64,000 bases of DNA from positions 2,528,001-2,592,000 of the forward strand of contig CBDCCI010000002.1 of NCBI GenBank assembly GCA_965214705.1. Direction: 5' to 3'. Of this stretch, positions 52,654 through 61,114 are shown in pieces. Position numbers and translations under genes: made by a program. The stretch is from Alphaproteobacteria bacterium. Its GTDB lineage: Bacteria > Pseudomonadota > Alphaproteobacteria > UBA828. The notes beneath the pieces were generated by a model that saw only the letters and a program-made list of their open reading frames with translations, had not been told where the DNA came from and ran no database searches. How positions within the stretch are numbered: the stretch's first letter is position 1; every line of letters starts with the position of its first letter.

Positions 52654-52727
52654 GCGGGTGTAGCTCAATGGTAGAGCAGAAGCTTCCCAAGCTTACGACG
52701 AGGGTTCGATTCCCTTCACCCGCTCCA
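52654..52727 (+). tRNA. tRNA-Gly(CCC)
   Basis: GCGGGTG acceptor stem, TAGCTCAATGGTAGAGC D arm, TTCCCAA anticodon loop, GGTTCGATTCC T arm, encoded CCA. Confidence 0.97.
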
Positions 52728-52838: not shown

Positions 52839-54047
52839 ATGTCGGACCGCTCCCGCATACTCTTCATCAACGTTGGGCACGGGCTCGACCACCTGTTCCT
52901 GCTGCTCTACCCGACCGTGGTGCTCACCCTCGAAGGGGTGTTCGACCGTTCCTACGGCGAGCTGCTCTCGCTTGCCGTGCCCGGCTTCATCGCCTTCGCC
53001 GCCGGCACGCTGCCGGCCGGCTGGTTGGGGGACCGGTGGAGCAGGCCCGCGATGCTCGCGATCTTCTTCGTCGGCATCGGGGCCGCGTCCATTCTCACCG
53101 GCTTCGCCCGCACGCCCTTCGAGCTTGCGGTCGGGCTCACGCTGATCGGCCTCTTCGCCTCGATCTATCACCCGGTCGGCATCGCCATGCTCGTCGAGGG
53201 ACGCGAGAAGGTCGGCAAGCTGCTCGGGGTCAACGGAGTCGCGGGAAACTTCGGGCTGGCGGCGGCGGCGATCGTGGCTGCGTCGCTGAGCGATGCGATC
53301 AGCTGGCGTGCGGCGTTCTTCGTGCCGGGCGCGGGCTCGCTGGTCGTGGGGCTCTGGTTCATCGCGGTCTGCCGGCAGTGGCGCAACAGCGAGGCGGTTT
53401 CCTCCCGACCCTCCCTGGGCCGGGGGTGGGGCGGCCAGCCCTCGGGCACGCTGCTGCGGCTGGTGCTGGTGATCGGCATCGCGACGACGCTCACGGGGCT
53501 CACGTTCCAGACCACGACCATCGCGCTCCCCAAACTGTTCGACGAAGGGCTCACCGGGATAACCGACAGTGCCCTCGGTATCGGCGGGCTGGTCTCGGTG
53601 GTCATCGCCATCGCCGCCTTCGCCCAGATCGGAGTCGGCTGGCTGATCGACCGCTACCCGGCCAAGCCGGTCTGGATCGCGGTGCTGTTCGCCCAGGCGC
53701 CGCTGATCGCCGCCGCCGGTGTGCTCGCTGGCCACGGCCTGATCATCGTGGCGCTCGCGATGATGATGGTGGTGGTCGGCGAGATTCCGATCCAGGACGC
53801 GCTGGTCACGCGTTACACGAAGGAGAGCTGGCGGGCGCGGGTCTTTGGCGTCAAGTTCCTGCTGGGCCTCGGCGCGAGCGCGGTGGCGGCGCCGCTGGTC
53901 GCGGGCCTCCACGGTGTTTCCGGCGGCTTCCTCTGGCTCTTCGTCGGACTCGGCGGCTCGGCGGCGCTGGTCGCCATCATCGCCTTCTGGCTGCCGAGCA
54001 GCGACGGTGGCGCGCCGCAGCACGCGGTGGCCAAGGCCGGGGCCTGA
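52839..54047 (+). CDS. MFS transporter
   Basis: GHGLDH, GWLGDRWSR (motif A), YHPVG, about 12 hydrophobic segments. Confidence 0.9.
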   Translation: MSDRSRILFINVGHGLDHLFLLLYPTVVLTLEGVFDRSYGELLSLAVPGFIAFAAGTLPAGWLGDRWSRPAMLAIFFVGIGAASILTGFARTPFELAVGLTLIGLFASIYHPVGIAMLVEGREKVGKLLGVNGVAGNFGLAAAAIVAASLSDAISWRAAFFVPGAGSLVVGLWFIAVCRQWRNSEAVSSRPSLGRGWGGQPSGTLLRLVLVIGIATTLTGLTFQTTTIALPKLFDEGLTGITDSALGIGGLVSVVIAIAAFAQIGVGWLIDRYPAKPVWIAVLFAQAPLIAAAGVLAGHGLIIVALAMMMVVVGEIPIQDALVTRYTKESWRARVFGVKFLLGLGASAVAAPLVAGLHGVSGGFLWLFVGLGGSAALVAIIAFWLPSSDGGAPQHAVAKAGA

Positions 54048-54087
54048 GACGGCCTGCGCGTCGGCTCGTCGAGGCCGCGACATTTGG

Positions 54088-54116
54088 TTGACCACGCCCA
54101 CCGGTTTGTGTTTCAT
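54088..54116 (+). promoter_or_regulatory. predicted sigma70-type promoter
   Basis: TTGACC-N17-TTTCAT ending 15 nt before the riboswitch. Confidence 0.5.
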
Positions 54117-54131
54117 GCGCGCACAGGACGC

Positions 54132-54212
54132 GCTCATCCAGAGCGGTGGAGGGACAGGCCCTTCGAAGCCGCGGCAACCGCCAAGAGCGGTGCCAATGCC
54201 TGATCGATGAGT
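54132..54212 (+). ncRNA. SAM-I superfamily riboswitch aptamer lacking P4
   Basis: P1 CUCAUC/GAUGAG, J1/2 CAGAG, P2 kink-turn CGGUGGAGGG-ACAGG-CCCUUCGAAGCCG, P3 GGCAACCGC/GCGGUGCC, pseudoknot CAGG/CCUG. Confidence 0.88.
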
Positions 54213-54279
54213 TAGCCGGAGGCGGAACTCCGCTCTCGGCGCTCGTAGAGCGCGTAGGAGACGAGAGGAGTACCGCCAG

Positions 54280-54345
54280 ATGATGACTCTGTGCGCCCAA
54301 CCATTCGCCCCTCCGGGGGCCGCGTCCTGTTGCGTCTGTACCTAG
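54280..54345 (+). CDS. putative Cys-rich leader peptide MMTLCAQPFAPPGAASCCVCT
   Basis: GAGGAG RBS at 54265-54270, ATGATG start, 4 Cys (CCVC just before TAG). Confidence 0.6.
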   Translation: MMTLCAQPFAPPGAASCCVCT

Positions 54346-54472
54346 GCTACCGCTCGTAGCCGATCCCACCGGGTGAGACCGATGGAGACCTCGCGGTCCT
54401 CCAGGCCTCTGGCATCGCCGCCGACCGGGGCGGTGTCAACGCCCGACAACCATGCCCACAAGGAGAAGATTC

Positions 54473-55036
54473 ATGTCCGATACCAGCGAAACTCCCGGCC
54501 TTAACGGTGTCAACGTCGAGCACCTGCTCGGCGCCCGCAATATCCTGGGCGACCAGCCCGAAGCCGGCCAGTTCACGTGGCGCGTTACCAACGAGTGGCT
54601 CCACGGCACCCACAGCAAGACGCAAGTGGAAGGCTATTTCGGCCTCGGCCAGGAGAACGACCACAAGGCGAGCTACTCGTTCGAGTCCGATCATCCCCTG
54701 GTGTTCGCGGCCGAGGACAACGCCGCCACGCCGGTGGAAATCGTGCTCACGGGCCTCGCGAGCTGCCTGACCGCGGGCGTCGCCGCGGTCGCACAGGTGC
54801 GGGAGATCCAGCTGCGTTCGGTCAAGGCCACGGTCGAAGGCGACATGGACATCGCCGGCATCCTGGGCGCCGATCCCGAAATCCGGAACGGGTTCAGCAA
54901 TGTCAAGGTCACCTACGATATCGACGCCGACGCCACGCCCGACGAGATCCAGGCGCTGGTCGCCCAGTCGCAAAAACGCTCGGCGGTCTACGATATCCTG
55001 ACCAACCCGACGAACGTCACCGTCGAGGTCAAGTAA
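54473..55036 (+). CDS. OsmC family protein (single-Cys subfamily)
   Basis: NGVNV, DHP..F...D...TPVE, LASCLTAG, RNGF, RSAVYD; AAGGAG RBS. Confidence 0.88.
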   Translation: MSDTSETPGLNGVNVEHLLGARNILGDQPEAGQFTWRVTNEWLHGTHSKTQVEGYFGLGQENDHKASYSFESDHPLVFAAEDNAATPVEIVLTGLASCLTAGVAAVAQVREIQLRSVKATVEGDMDIAGILGADPEIRNGFSNVKVTYDIDADATPDEIQALVAQSQKRSAVYDILTNPTNVTVEVK

Positions 55037-55044
55037 CCGCCGTC

Positions 55045-56292
55045 ATGCAGACGACGACCGTCGTGGTCGGGGCCGGTCATGCCGGCCTCGCCGTGAGCCA
55101 TTGCCTCGCCGCGCGCGGCATCGATCACGTGGTGATCGAGCGCGGCGAGGTGGCTCACACGTGGCGGACGGAGCGCTGGGAGTCGCTCCGCCTGCTGACG
55201 CCGAACTGGCAGACGCAGGTGCCCGGCCTCGCCTACGACGGCGACGATCCCGACGGCTTCATGACCATGGCCGAGGTGGTGGCGTTCATCGAGCGCTACG
55301 CCCGGCTCGTGGACCCGCCGCTCGAGACCGGCACCACCGTCGAAGCCCTGACCAAGAACGGCGCCGGCTACGAGGTGGCGACCGACCGGGGCGTCTGGCG
55401 CTGCGCATGCGTGGTGCTCGCCTCCGGCGGCTTCAACGTTCCGAAGATTCCGGCGGTCGGGGCGGCGCTCTCCGGCACCATCGAGTCGGTGACGCCGATG
55501 GACTACACGCGGCCCTCGGACTTGCCGGAGGGCGGCGTGCTGGTGGTCGGCGCGTCCGCCACCGGTGTCCAGATCGCGGACGAGGTGCACCGCTCGGGCC
55601 GCCCCGTGACGATCGCGGTGGGCGAGCACGTGCGCATGCCGCGCACCTATCGCGGCAAGGACATCCTGTGGTGGATGGATCGCACCGGGCTGCACGACGA
55701 GCGCTACGACGAGGTGGACGACATCGTGCGCGCGCGCCGGGTTCCCTCGCCGCAGCTCGTGGGCACGCCGGAACGCTCCACGCTGAATCTCAACGACCTC
55801 ACCGATCAGGGGGTGCGCCTGGTGGGCCTGCTGGCCGGGTTCTCGGACGGCAAGGCGCAGTTCTCGGGCTCGCTCCGCAACAAGTGCAACCTGGCGGACC
55901 TGAAGCAGGGCCGGCTGCTCGACACCATCGACGAATGGGTCGACGAGAACGGGCTCGATGACGAATTCGAGTCGCCGCATCGTTTCGAGCCGACGCGGGT
56001 GGAGGAGTCGCCGCCGCTCACCCTCGACCTCGCCCGCGAGGGGATTCGGACGGTGATCTGGGCGACCGGATACGAGCCCGACCATTCCTGGGTCGATCTT
56101 CCCGTGTTCGACCGCAAGGGGCGGCTGCGCCATGACGGCGGCGTGGTGACGGAGGCGCCGGGCGTCTACCGCATCGGCCTCAACTTCCTGCGCCGGCGCA
56201 AGTCAAGCTTCATCCACGGCACCGCCGACGATGCCCGCGATCTCACCGACCATTTGGCCGCTCAGATCGGCGCGGACTCGGCCCGCCACTGA
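55045..56292 (+). CDS. flavin-containing monooxygenase / FAD-NAD(P) oxidoreductase
   Basis: VVGAGHAGL, WRTERWESLRLLTPNW, VVGASATGVQIA, IWATGY. Confidence 0.9.
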   Translation: MQTTTVVVGAGHAGLAVSHCLAARGIDHVVIERGEVAHTWRTERWESLRLLTPNWQTQVPGLAYDGDDPDGFMTMAEVVAFIERYARLVDPPLETGTTVEALTKNGAGYEVATDRGVWRCACVVLASGGFNVPKIPAVGAALSGTIESVTPMDYTRPSDLPEGGVLVVGASATGVQIADEVHRSGRPVTIAVGEHVRMPRTYRGKDILWWMDRTGLHDERYDEVDDIVRARRVPSPQLVGTPERSTLNLNDLTDQGVRLVGLLAGFSDGKAQFSGSLRNKCNLADLKQGRLLDTIDEWVDENGLDDEFESPHRFEPTRVEESPPLTLDLAREGIRTVIWATGYEPDHSWVDLPVFDRKGRLRHDGGVVTEAPGVYRIGLNFLRRRKSSFIHGTADDARDLTDHLAAQIGADSARH

Positions 56293-57204: not shown

Positions 57205-59407
57205 CAGGGCGAATTTGTCCAAGCCTGATTTTTGAGTTCTGCGCTACGAGTTGACCTTGGGTCTGGTCAGCGCGCGCCAACCCTGCTATGGATTGAGGCG
57301 ACTGGATTCGCGGTGTTCTGCTGCGGATCGGCTTCGAGCAGGGGGACGGTTTCTACGGTGGATCTTTCCGAGGTCGATGTCGCTGCTGTCCGGCCGGAGG
57401 ACGAGGCCCGGTTCCGCGCGCTGATGGAGGGGCATCACTACCTGGGTGCGTCTGCGAAGGTGGGGGCGACGGCGTGGTACGTCGCCCATCGGCGCGGCGA
57501 GTGGCTGGCGCTGGCCGTGTTTTCGGCTGCGGCGCGCAAGTGCCGGGCGCGGGACGAGTGGATCGGCTGGGACTTCCGCACGCAGCACGGGCGGCTGCAT
57601 CTGATCGCGAACAACGCGCGCTTCCTGATCCTGCCGGGACGGGGTGTTCCGAACCTCGGCTCGCGGGTGCTGGGGCTTTGCGCGCGGCGCTTGGCGCGCG
57701 ACTGGCCGGCCCGCTTCGGCCACCCCGTGCTGATGCTGGAAACATTCGTGGACGCGGCGAGGTTCCGGGGCACGGTCTACCGGGCGGCTGGATGGCTGGC
57801 GGTCGGCCAGACCCGCGGCTTCCGGCGCCACCGCTCGGGCTATGTCGCCGGCTCGACGCCGAAGCTTGTGCTGCTGCGCCCCCTGGTTCCCGACGCCTGC
57901 CGCCGGCTGTCCGCTGCCGGGCTGGATCGGGAGTTGTGGAAGAAAGGAGTTCCGAGAACCATGATCAGCGCCGCTCAGCAAGAGTCGCTCTACGCCTACT
58001 TCAAGGACATCGACGACCCCCGCACGCGCAAGGGACGGCGGCATTCGCTGCCCAGCGTGCTCGCGCTTGCGAGTGGCGCGACGCTCTGCGGCATGCGAGG
58101 CTGGAAGGCCATGTCCGAGTGGGTCGACGATCTCGGCGAGAAGGCGCTGGCCCGCTTCGGCGTGCGGCTGCGCGACGGGGTGCGCCGGCCGCCTTCGATG
58201 TCGACCATCCGCAATGTGGTGATCCGGGTGGACCCGGACCAGTTGGACGAGGCGTTGCGCAAGTGGCAGGAGGCCCACGGCTCAGGCGACGCGGCGCTTG
58301 CCATCGACGGCAAGACCCTGAGGGGGGCCATCGACGAGGACGGGACCCAGGCTCATGTCATGAGCGCGGTCGGGCACGAGACCAAGGCCACGCTCGCCCA
58401 AAAAAACTTCTCCTGAAAGTCGGGGCCGACGAGGAGACAAAGCGCACCAACGAGATCGGCACCGTGACGGCGCTGGTGGACCTGATCCCGAACATCGCGG
58501 GCAAGACGGTCACGACGGACGCGCTGCTAACCCAGCGCAAGTTCGCCCGCTACCTGCTCGACCGGGGCGCGCACTTCATGTTCATCGTGAAAGGGAACCA
58601 GAAGACCATGCGGGACGATGTGACGCTGCTCTTCGAAGAGGCGCCGGAGCGTGAGCCTGACTTCGAGGAGGAGGCCGCGCTGTCGCACGGACGCATCGAG
58701 CAGCGGGCAATCTGGACGAGCACGGAGTTGAACGGCTTTCTCGACTTCCCGGGCGTCGGCCAGGTCTTCATGATCGAGCGCTCCCGCCAGGACAAGAAGA
58801 CCGGCGAGACCGGCACCGAGACCGCCTACGGGATCTCCAGCCACACGCCCGGCACGGCCAACGCGCAGAGCCTGCTCGCCCTCAACCGCGGCCACTGGTG
58901 CATCGAGAACAGCTCGCACCACTGCCTCGACTGGACCTGGGACGAGGACCGCAGCCGCATACGCACAGGCTTCGGCCCCGAGAACATGACCCGCCTGCGG
59001 CGCTTCGCCATCGGCCTGATCAAGGGCCGGGGGCTCGAGGTCGCCTCGACCGTGCGCAGGCTCGCCCGCAACGTCCGCGCCGTCCTCGACTTCCTGAAAA
59101 TGACCGGGAACACCCAGCCGAGGACCGCAAAGCGCGCCGCGCCGGCCTGAACCCCGGCGCCCGGCAAGCCGGGCGCAAAGATCGTACCTGCCCTCGCTCC
59201 CGACCACGCCGGTGGCGCGATCCATCATGTCGGGGCACCGCCAAATCGCGACGGCACCGCCCGCACCGCCCACACGGTAATGCCAGAACCCTCTGACCGA
59301 ACCGGATGCTCGGCCAGACCCCGCCGCAAACCCCGCAACAAAGCCGATCCGCACAACCCGTGGCCAGAACTCAACTGCCTACCAGCCGCTTGGACAAATT
59401 TGCCCTG
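57205..59407 (+). mobile_element. ISAs1 family IS carrying a DUF4338 (DruA-like) fused transposase (2203 bp)
   Basis: 20-bp IR CAGGGC(G/A)AATTTGTCCAAGC; 10-bp DR CGCTTGGAGG at 57195-57204 and 59408-59417. Confidence 0.94.
57358..59150 (+). CDS. DUF4338-ISAs1 transposase, two ORFs joined by a -1 frameshift at A7C (58400-58407)
   Basis: ORF1: HHYLG, RDEWIGW, NNARFLILP, ETFVD, GTVYRAAGW, then DPR..GRRH and IDGKTLRG; ORF2: TNEI, TDALLTQ, VKGNQ, HGRIE, RGHWCIEN, WDED. Confidence 0.88.
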
Positions 59408-59515
59408 CGCTTGGAGGATGCATGGCGTCGCGGGCACGTGGTATATAGTAGGGTACGGCGACAAACAGGTTCGACGGCACGGACCGCTCAATCGGAAGGA
59501 GCAAGGGAGGCTTCA

Positions 59516-61114
59516 ATGGGGATCAGGATCACGCGACGGCAGGCGCTGAAGACCGGCGCCGCAGGCCTAGTGCTCACCTCGCCGATCGGCATCGCACCCA
59601 AGTACATCCGTCCCGCGCGGGCGGCGGGCTTGGCGCCTGGGATGACCGGCGGCCCCACGGGCTTCCCGGGGGCCGAGCGCTATCAGTACAACGAGGACAT
59701 GCCCGAAGGGCGGGCCATCGAAGGCATCAAGAAGCTCAAGGCAGAGGGCAAGGCGCCTGAGAAGTTGAGCTTCCTGCTCTTCTCGGGAGCGATCGGCCAG
59801 TTCACCAAGCCCTTCCCGGAGGGCGCGCCGACCGTCCACGACGTGTGGAAGGAAGAGACCGGGATCGAGGTCGAGTTCAGCGGCTCTGGCGAAGTGGAGA
59901 TGGTGACCAAGGTTCTCCAGGACATCACCACCCAGGCCGGCGTCTACGACATCTATTCCGCGCTGTGGAGCAATGTCGGCGACCTCGTCGCCACCGGCGG
60001 CATCGTCAATCTGGACCCGTACGTCGAGCAGTATAAGCCCGACTGGAACGACCCCGAGCGCGGGGCACCGACTGCGGAGATCGCCGATCTTCTCTACAAG
60101 TATGCGGGCTCCTACTACACGATCTCCTTCGACGGGGACTTCCAGACCTGGGTCTACCGCAAGGACCTGTTCGAGGACCCCGAGAACGTGAAGGAGTTCA
60201 GCGACCGCTACGGCTGGGAGCTGGGCAAGCCGCAGACCTGGGAACACGCTGACAATATCGCCGAGTTCTTCGCCGAGAAGGGCATGAACGGAACCGTCAA
60301 TCTGTTCAGCCCGTTCTGGGGTCTGGGCACCTACTTCATGCGCTACGTGGGGCAGGACAATCCCAACTTCCAGTACTTCGACGACAACGGAAACCCGCTG
60401 CTCGAGACGGAGCTCGGCATCAAGACCGCCGAGGAGCACGTGAGAAGCCGGCAGTGGGCCAACAAGGATGCGCTCAGCTGGACCTGGTCCGAGGCTTACG
60501 GGAGCATGGCCCAAGGCACCGGCGTGATGATGAGCACCTATACCAACCTGCGGAAGTTCAACGACCGGATGAACGCCGACGGAACGCCCGCCACGCCTGC
60601 GTCGGGCAAGCTCGGCTCGTTCCTCCCGGTGGGCAATTGGTTCGGAGACGACCTGATCCGCCGCAGCGTGCTCTACCTCAACATCAACGCCGAGGTCTCG
60701 GCGCAGAGCGAGTATCCGGAGGCCGCCTATCTCTTCCTCCAGTGGGCGAGTTGCTCGCGCATCTTCAGCTGGATGTCGGGCAATCCGGCCGGCTACTTCG
60801 ATCCGTTCCAGAAGGCCAACTTCGACGATCCGTTGGTGCAGCAGACCTACCACAAGGACCACGTGGAGGTGATTCAGGAGACCATCAAGCGCTCCGCACC
60901 GACGATCAACTTCGCCGGCCAGTCCGCATTCGACAACGGCCTGGACGAGGAGTTGCAGCGCGCGCTGATCGGCGACATCACGCCCGAAGAGGCCATGAAG
61001 AACGCCTCCAAGAAATGGCGGAAGATCATCAAGAAGAAGGGCGAGGACAAGATGATCGAGGCCATCCGCGCGAGCAACAAGGCAGCCTGGCCGACCATCG
61101 TCGACAAGGCTTAG
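59516..61114 (+). CDS. ABC transporter substrate-binding protein (carbohydrate type), Tat-exported
   Basis: ITRRQALK signal, YRKDLF, PQTW, AAYLFLQW, TPEEAM. Confidence 0.87.
   Translation: MGIRITRRQALKTGAAGLVLTSPIGIAPKYIRPARAAGLAPGMTGGPTGFPGAERYQYNEDMPEGRAIEGIKKLKAEGKAPEKLSFLLFSGAIGQFTKPFPEGAPTVHDVWKEETGIEVEFSGSGEVEMVTKVLQDITTQAGVYDIYSALWSNVGDLVATGGIVNLDPYVEQYKPDWNDPERGAPTAEIADLLYKYAGSYYTISFDGDFQTWVYRKDLFEDPENVKEFSDRYGWELGKPQTWEHADNIAEFFAEKGMNGTVNLFSPFWGLGTYFMRYVGQDNPNFQYFDDNGNPLLETELGIKTAEEHVRSRQWANKDALSWTWSEAYGSMAQGTGVMMSTYTNLRKFNDRMNADGTPATPASGKLGSFLPVGNWFGDDLIRRSVLYLNINAEVSAQSEYPEAAYLFLQWASCSRIFSWMSGNPAGYFDPFQKANFDDPLVQQTYHKDHVEVIQETIKRSAPTINFAGQSAFDNGLDEELQRALIGDITPEEAMKNASKKWRKIIKKKGEDKMIEAIRASNKAAWPTIVDKA

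Follow-up and report, generated by a model that had tools for sequence, protein, structure and literature searches.

What kind of riboswitch lies before a pair of non-methionine genes in an alphaproteobacterium, has the core of SAM-I and lacks the P4 helix, and what might it control? The question is posed by one locus of the window (the whole 64,000-nucleotide stretch of DNA that was analysed), for which a preliminary description had proposed an architecture intermediate between SAM-riboswitch classes. According to the available text of the 2007 survey by Barrick and Breaker, SAM-I is nearly absent from Alphaproteobacteria, and SAM-I and SAM-II occurred together in no species at that time (Barrick & Breaker, 2007; PMC2258182). 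Coordinates of the features discussed below are collected in Table 1.

Table 1. Features of the riboswitch locus, in coordinates of the window.
Feature	Position	Strand	Description
Possible promoter	54088..54116	+	TTGACC (54088–93), 17-nt spacer, TTTCAT (54111–16); read from sequence
5′ segment ACGCGCUC	54128..54135	+	Overlaps P1 5′ strand; perfect complement of 54248–54255
SAM-I aptamer, P4-less	54131..54213	+	RF00162; P1, P2 with kink-turn, P3, pseudoknot
Hairpin H1	54215..54240	+	54221–54238 is the proposed anti-SD strand
Hairpin H2	54239..54253	+	GCGCUC, loop, GAGCGC; arms could exchange with P1 strands
Shine-Dalgarno (SD) region and flank	54262..54277	+	GAGAGGAG at 54263–70, 9 nt before AUG
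Leader ORF (uORF)	54280..54345	+	21 codons and TAG, 4 Cys codons
Second leader half	54346..54472	+	Conserved hairpins including GGAGACC/GGUCCUCC; from alignment, fold and composition
OsmC-like protein	54473..55036	+	187 aa, single Cys; Pfam PF02566, E = 8e-18
FAD/NAD(P)-dependent oxidoreductase	55045..56292	+	415 aa, MSMEG_0569-like/type II flavin-monooxygenase kind

A SAM-I aptamer without P4

Searching the whole window against Rfam 15 with cmscan gave three matches that exceed their gathering scores, one of which is SAM-I (RF00162) on the plus strand (68.9 bits, where the gathering score is 44.4; E = 5e-14; model positions 1–108); the same match was reproduced when cmscan was limited to 53900–54600. 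It is not a chance match, since an 82–86-nt, P4-less match of this kind recurs in 15 of 20 congeners and at 43 of 66 loci that carry OsmC relatives. The RNA at 54131–54213 is a P4-less SAM-I (S-box) aptamer. The preliminary description had set the element at 54132..54240: that start lies a single base inside the Rfam start, whereas the end belongs to hairpin H1, the aptamer itself stopping at 54213.

All the core elements that had been read from the letters—P1, a kink-turn P2, P3 and a CAGG/CCUG pseudoknot—aligned to RF00162. P1 closes the junction with seven pairs (54132–38 with 54206–12), of which six are Watson-Crick and are kept in 42–43 of 43 distinct leaders, and the conserved A-U/U-A steps adjoin J1/2. 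In SAM-I riboswitches generally, such P1 pairs beside J1/2 have a role in SAM contact. In P2, an asymmetric GGA/UUCGAA loop aligns to the kink-turn columns of the model, and the helices on either side of this loop are 100% paired in 43/43 leaders. The pseudoknot joins CAGG (54155–58) in the P2 loop to CCUG (54199–54202) in J3/4, with all four pairs present and invariant in every one of the 43 leaders, while the GCAACC/GGUGC core of P3 aligned at high posterior probability and two of the eight P3 pairs show compensatory changes. Overall, 22 of the 27 aptamer pairs never vary among these leaders; with P1, P2 and the pseudoknot almost invariant, covariation is uninformative for the aptamer helices in this set. 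An aptamer of this anatomy would be expected to bind SAM.

The remark that only AUC occupies the place of P4 was borne out by the alignment, in which 17 model positions are cleanly deleted and AUC (54203–05) alone separates the pseudoknot strand from the 3′ strand of P1; the canonical four-way junction with P4 is absent. As P4 is not required for curated membership of RF00162, we file the window RNA in the P4-less subclass of SAM-I. Members of this sort have been published as natural variants: in the accessible part of one 2025 study, the first principal component of the RF00162 alignment corresponds to P4 deletion, one group of Actinomycetota has a P4 that is very short or absent, and aptamers without P4 function with reduced affinity (PMC12714719, citing Trausch 2014 and Heppell 2011).

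Such RNAs also turned up in our own sample of 151 Actinomycetota genomes, drawn from the phylum of a riboswitch host titled Acidimicrobiia (G101). SAM-I matches were present in 80 of the 151 genomes, with 17 of 99 above-cut-off matches no longer than 95 nt (75 of 146 genomes and 15 of 92 matches when five genomes flagged as unpublished are set aside). All 11 short matches that were retrieved, each from a published genome, score above the cut-off, and the P4 positions are deleted in 10/10 of those with the alignment displayed, leaving 0–4 bases instead. The window RNA shares with the known P4-less SAM-I aptamers the covariance-model family, P1, the P2 kink-turn, P3, the pseudoknot and 3–4 nt at the site of P4. 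It therefore belongs to the P4-less subclass of SAM-I and is neither a new class nor an intermediate between classes, and the proposal of an intermediate architecture falls. What sets it apart from known P4-less SAM-I is the host, an alphaproteobacterium that also carries SAM-II, and the target, a leader ORF and an OsmC-like/flavoprotein operon instead of met genes, with a terminator absent. Elsewhere in the Actinomycetota sample, loci L115, L116, L117 and L120 carry a second P4-less SAM-I subclass, behind which come hairpins of the U-tract terminator type and then a short MetE-like gene.

Among the sister classes, SAM-IV (RF00634) has in common with the window RNA a P4-free, SAM-I-like core and a hairpin 3′ of P1. 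In the available description, SAM-IV has a P5 hairpin 3′ of P1, a PK-2 and a SAM-I-like core with a junction that is free of P4 (PMC6890682). The window RNA differs in its full kink-turn and in having no PK-2 partner: the P3 loop varies in sequence and length across the 43 leaders, whereas the downstream sequence is fixed, so the hairpin after P1 does not behave like the P5/PK-2 element of SAM-IV, and SAM-IV was rejected as an identity. The SAM-I/IV variants (RF01725), members of the same clan that are known from marine metagenomes as well as from several phyla, have no internal loop in P2 (PMC2864571); the window RNA has that loop, and this identity was rejected too.

Model searches of the host genome for the sister classes yielded weak negatives. 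With 150 of approximately 2494 candidates scored, RF00634 gave nothing at E ≤ 0.001; the same model scores the true SAM-IV of an actinobacterial locus (L121, genome G188) at 103.8 bits. That SAM-IV, on the plus strand, stands divergent from a P4-less SAM-I (60.7 bits, minus strand) at most 170 nt away. RF01725 and RF01727 (SAM/SAH), each again with 150 candidates scored, also gave nothing at E ≤ 0.001, models whose controls likewise yielded no match. Of the SAM-clan models named in the preliminary description, SAM itself thus matched, and SAM-IV and SAM-I/IV did not at that threshold in the host's own genome. In one scan of OsmC loci, two weaker clan matches were suppressed beneath the RF00162 match; the sibling models match weakly.

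Host, operon and distribution

The supposition of an alphaproteobacterial host agrees with records 95–99% identical in the downstream protein, which are titled Alphaproteobacteria or Rhodospirillales. Throughout this 7.9-Mb, three-contig genome, the aptamer is the single RF00162 match. A SAM-II riboswitch (RF00521, 68.8 bits) lies on another contig (C1:3955948–3956026, minus strand, locus L083), directly 5′ of metZ, the gene for O-succinylhomoserine sulfhydrylase (TIGR01325, 559 bits). The SAM riboswitch on methionine synthesis is thus of the class that an alphaproteobacterium would be expected to use, and SAM-I comes as an extra; both in one genome is a combination unseen in the 2007 survey, as far as its available text goes (PMC2258182).

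The genes behind the aptamer are, as had been anticipated, not standard methionine genes. Among solved structures, 2opl_A (a ‘hypothetical protein’) comes nearest to the OsmC-like protein, with E = 8e-38. The flavoprotein matches TIGR04046 at 357 bits, below the 498-bit cut-off of that model, as well as ArsO and Pyr_redox_3, and its relatives in the PDB are type II flavin monooxygenases.

Around the operon, an ISAs1-like transposase (57232–59150, plus strand) begins 1 kb past the last gene, split over two overlapping frames, the first with DruA/DUF4338 and DDE_Tnp_1_assoc domains and the second with DDE_Tnp_1. On the upstream side, 1.4 kb away, is a gene for tRNA-Gly(CCC) (52654–52727, plus strand), which the closest relatives have at an equal distance. 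It is possible that tRNA and transposase frame a small island, comprising an MFS transporter, the riboswitch operon and a DNA-alkylation-repair gene. An Rfam match to Cis90_sRNA of Ruegeria (60648–60848, minus strand, 87.2 bits) runs antisense within a 602-aa ORF (59306–61114).

Distribution was followed along two lines, by kinship of the host and by kinship of the OsmC-like protein. Among 100 relatives of the host (20 of the same genus, 23 from other genera of the family and 57 from other families), the 83-nt match occurs in 15 of the 20 congeners, in 0/23 and in 0/57; two of the five congeners that lack it are represented by complete genomes. The search by OsmC kinship, at one genome per species, covered 66 loci, with RF00162 upstream of the OsmC-like gene at 43 (19/20, 17/20, 6/20 and 1/6 by batch). 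All the RF00162 matches at these loci span 82–86 nt and are P4-less. Loci that carry no match, of which two among the 23 have too little upstream DNA to judge, belong mostly to distant OsmC relatives (62–74% identity).

Titles of the RF00162-positive records, several of which are closed chromosomes, include Alphaproteobacteria, Gammaproteobacteria, Rhodobacterales, Paracoccaceae, Ca. Spongiisociaceae, Immundisolibacterales and Acidimicrobiia. Compared with the window, the aptamer is identical at 74–81 of its 83 positions (89–98%) in the records titled Gammaproteobacteria, Rhodobacterales, Ca. Spongiisociaceae and Acidimicrobiia. The flavoprotein gene follows the OsmC-like gene in 6/6 other lineages tested, and the flavoprotein of the window is 68% identical to that of the Acidimicrobiia-titled record. 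Aptamer, H1, H2, SD and leader AUG are one conserved unit before the OsmC-like and flavoprotein genes. One 3.7-kb contig titled ‘uncultured Bifidobacteriaceae’ (L024) carries the cassette with an OsmC-like protein 88% identical to that of the window; this title suggests faulty binning or labelling, not a true host.

Two actinobacterial loci bear on the origin of the arrangement, both sharing the P1 sequence and the post-P1 hairpins H1 and H2 with the window. L119 has the aptamer, H1, H2, an SD, a leader ORF and an OsmC-like protein at 30% identity to that of the window; in L114, the same aptamer and hairpins stand before a zinc-ribbon ThrC-like gene. These arrangements, together with the cross-phylum identity and the presence of one SAM-I match per genome in all six hosts checked (that of the window and five others), suggest that a P4-less switch of actinobacterial type has spread together with its operon. 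Riboswitch, platform, leader ORF and the two genes appear to have been transferred as a unit across classes and phyla. Acquisition of the RNA with its operon, which had been put forward as a possibility, fits these sole copies, the 0/80 relatives from outside the genus and the 89–98% identity between classes and phyla. Recent transfer, and not constraint on each of the conserved bases, may lie behind the high identity between phyla.

RNA libraries also contain sequence of this kind. Eighteen runs hold a fraction of 0.06–0.10 of sampled words from 54050–55100, and in four runs from four studies, contigs of relatives (90–99% identity, mostly <95%) cover parts of 54130–54413 and the OsmC-like gene; three of those four are labelled sponge or marine-type metagenomes. 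Such contigs are evidence of presence in the libraries, not of transcription, transcript ends or levels, and DNA carry-over is possible.

The leader and a proposed translational switch

Upstream of the aptamer, a block of TTGAC and TTTCAT/TTCCAT is kept across 16 loci of the genus, and a strict sigma-70 scan of 53950–54550 returned 0 sites; from the putative promoter, the RNA would start a few bases before P1. The segment at 54128–35 is nearly invariant in the 43 distinct leaders. A hairpin after P1 without a U-tract, as in the preliminary description, is present as H1, and a terminator scan of 53950–54550 found 0 terminator-like sites. H1 has a 4-bp base that is invariant in 43/43 leaders, a distal stem with one compensatory change and variable loops; the H2 stem is 100% paired in 43/43, its loop varies in length and sequence, and extensions of the stem are lineage-specific.

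All 43 distinct leaders (alignment A2) retain H1, H2, SD and AUG, the last two at a fixed distance from one another in each. The SD and AUG of the leader ORF are likewise kept in 16/16 loci of the genus, and at 43/43 riboswitch-bearing loci, an ORF of 21–60 codons begins at the conserved AUG. Among the 36 distinct versions of this ORF that were listed, six have a stop codon that overlaps the OsmC start or lies right beside it. From these features of the alignment, we infer that the leader ORF is regulatory and the direct target of the switch; the peptide, poorly conserved between lineages, and the frequency of short ORFs in DNA of 67% G+C count against such a role.

The leader extends for 259 nt 3′ of the aptamer, of which the 127 nt between the leader-ORF stop and the OsmC start are structured and C-rich; a second ribosome site precedes the OsmC-like gene. 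In most lineages outside the genus, a long-range helix (GCUCYCGGG... with ...CCCGRGAGC) encloses the stop codon of the leader ORF. The second leader half also contains a GGAG(G)NCC...GGNCCUCC hairpin, a mimic of the SD/anti-SD pair. At 54346–54472, as in L037, L039, L044, L058, L063, L065 and L119, conserved structure is present with no match to an Rfam family.

Folding of the 181-nt segment 54120–54300 gave two states that bear on control. The minimum free-energy fold (−81.6 kcal/mol, z −2.8) forms the aptamer helices and pairs 54221–54238 with 54262–54277 around H2, so that the ribosome site is covered. An alternative fold at −78.5 kcal/mol pairs ACGCGCUC at 54128–35 with GAGCGCGU at 54248–55 and 54207–12 with 54241–46, closes H1 and leaves the SD free. 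P1 and H2 can thus exchange strands in the model, and with P1 enforced, the H1 form is 6.5 kcal/mol less favourable than the SD-sequestered form.

Across the 43 leaders, the complement for the swap (54128–35/54248–55) is 8/8 in 38 and 7/8 in five. At least three-quarters of the SD is paired with P1 enforced in 32/43, and at most one-quarter is paired with the swap enforced in 32/43; by this crude test, the expected difference between states is not seen in 11/43. Alignment-free duplexes between anti-SD and SD range from −13.6 to −28.9 kcal/mol in the 43 leaders and are stronger than shuffled sequences in all 43 (z −0.7 to −4.0). The three sequestering helices are paired at 78, 68 and 89% by column, with six pairs changed on both sides; the swap helices hardly vary, and covariation cannot support them in this set. 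Already in the absence of ligand, the model favours the P1/sequestered state (median 4.8 kcal/mol over the 43 leaders), a point against the switch proposed below.

This pair of folds, the conserved swap complement and the pairing states of the SD fit a translational OFF switch that would act on the leader ORF and thereby on the OsmC-like/flavoprotein operon (54473–56292), a reading to which we give a probability of roughly 0.55. With SAM bound, P1 would be held closed, H2 would fold locally and 54221–54238 would pair with 54262–54277, burying the GAGAGGAG site before the leader AUG. Without SAM, the P1 strands would swap onto the arms of H2 (54128–35 with 54248–55 and 54207–12 with 54241–46), H1 would close on the anti-SD strand and the ribosome site would be freed. 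Translation of the leader ORF might then promote operon expression by shielding the C-rich leader from Rho, by melting helices or by reinitiation, with direct coupling possible in those lineages in which the leader-ORF stop abuts the OsmC start. The outcome would be induction of the operon at low SAM, when sulfur or methionine supply is short.

An independent precedent supports the OFF logic. In Ca. Pelagibacter ubique, the neighbours of osmC are bhmT and the oxidoreductase gene ordL; osmC is located downstream of a validated SAM-V riboswitch, and under sulfur limitation it is the most induced transcript, with 50-fold more mRNA and 4–10-fold more protein (PMC5069961). The bhmT-osmC-ordL locus with its SAM-V/SAM-II riboswitch resembles that of the window in that a marine alphaproteobacterial osmC and an oxidoreductase stand behind a SAM riboswitch that occludes a ribosome site, and are induced by sulfur limitation. 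It differs in that its riboswitch is of another class with an unrelated fold and that no leader ORF is described in the accessible text; the OsmC proteins are likened by family name. In our searches for literature linking SAM riboswitches with OsmC, this work alone was found, and nothing on the present cassette; on this analogy, the association of a SAM riboswitch with osmC should not be called wholly unprecedented.

Control of translation by a proteobacterial SAM-I has a parallel as well, in Xanthomonas campestris, where, according to the available text, SAM-I acts mainly on translation and controls the met operon (PMC7270179), a target that the window RNA does not share. The leader ORF of the window may be set beside a more distant system. 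In the mgtA leader of Salmonella, a ligand-sensing RNA is combined with a short translated ORF, mgtL, and Rho is implicated. Ligand and fold are different there, and the window switch appears to gate the ribosome site of the leader ORF itself.

Four other readings of the same leader were weighed. According to the first, it is mainly transcription that is controlled, through Rho, with SAM-dependent folding exposing or hiding a Rho loading site and the leader ORF without function. The long leader with a C/G ratio of 1.27 (0.98 in the window), the intrinsic terminator sought and not found in 53950–54550 and the poorly conserved peptide would all suit such a device; the C excess is modest, suggestive at most as the sign of a Rho site, and a purely Rho-based device would have no need of the SD and AUG at fixed distance or of the anti-SD complement, both of which are kept in 43/43 leaders. 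We consider this reading unlikely.

It is quite unlikely that H1 and H2 belong to a larger aptamer as peripheral elements, replacing P4 as P5/PK-2 do in SAM-IV and leaving the RNA with no expression platform. The two hairpins follow P1 directly, are conserved about as strongly as the aptamer and occur with that P4-less aptamer in L114 as well, where another gene follows, all of which such a reading would explain; it sits poorly with the P3 loop—the PK-2 partner in SAM-IV—which varies freely with no matching downstream change, with the complementarity of H1 to the SD and with the quite different post-P1 sequences, U-tract terminators included, of the other P4-less SAM-I RNAs (L115–L117 and L120). 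The searches with the SAM-IV and SAM-I/IV models, weak negatives within the limited candidates scored, point the same way.

The opposite logic, an ON switch in which SAM binding frees the ribosome site and the operon is made at high SAM, appears very unlikely. A fold with free SD does exist when P1 and H1 are both enforced (−75.1 kcal/mol), and physiology alone cannot fix the logic of an uncharacterised operon; with P1 alone enforced, however, the sequestered fold has the 6.5 kcal/mol advantage given above, 32/43 leaders behave in the OFF manner and Pelagibacter osmC is, in the text available, induced at low sulfur (PMC5069961). A decayed or inert relic, carried along with an operon that seems horizontally mobile and has a split ISAs1-like transposase 1 kb downstream, is scarcely credible for an RNA that scores well above its cut-off, keeps all core elements intact in 59 loci, shows compensatory changes in P3 and has a conserved platform.

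Significance of the cassette

The type of aptamer in the window was already known; what is new is its context, namely a SAM-II-bearing alphaproteobacterial host, a portable cassette and probable control through a leader ORF before the OsmC-like/flavoprotein operon. For the question posed by the locus, this means an ordinary SAM-I aptamer in a trimmed form. Modelling of the leader suggests that the operon is probably shut off when SAM is plentiful.

A more speculative extension of the OFF switch comes from the codons of the leader ORF. Met and Cys residues cluster in the leader peptides of different lineages (MCCPGSR, MECLGSR, RCPCSR and MAMMPSSR, with SCCVCT in this genus), and in several lineages, the Met/Cys codons immediately precede those from which the 5′ arm of the downstream long-range helix is built. 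This position gives rise to the idea of a second sensor, of tRNA charging. The cassette might then be a mobile, two-tier sulfur sensor of unrelated, apparently sponge-associated bacteria, in which the SAM aptamer gates the leader ORF, stalling on that ORF reports the supply of Met- and Cys-tRNA and the OsmC-like protein and flavoprotein are made only when SAM and the sulfur amino acids run short together—a tentative suggestion that we regard as rather doubtful. If it were true, the pair would represent an unrecognised function in sulfur starvation or in the scavenging of organosulfur compounds.

Apart from that extension, the cassette offers a natural example of a portable regulatory unit that has apparently moved across classes and phyla. 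Should the strand-swap platform be confirmed, it would illustrate how translation can be controlled by a P4-less SAM-I in organisms of high G+C content. For the proteins themselves, the riboswitch would tie an uncharacterised pair, OsmC-like protein and flavin oxidoreductase, to the SAM or sulfur status of the cell, and so may provide a handle on their role.
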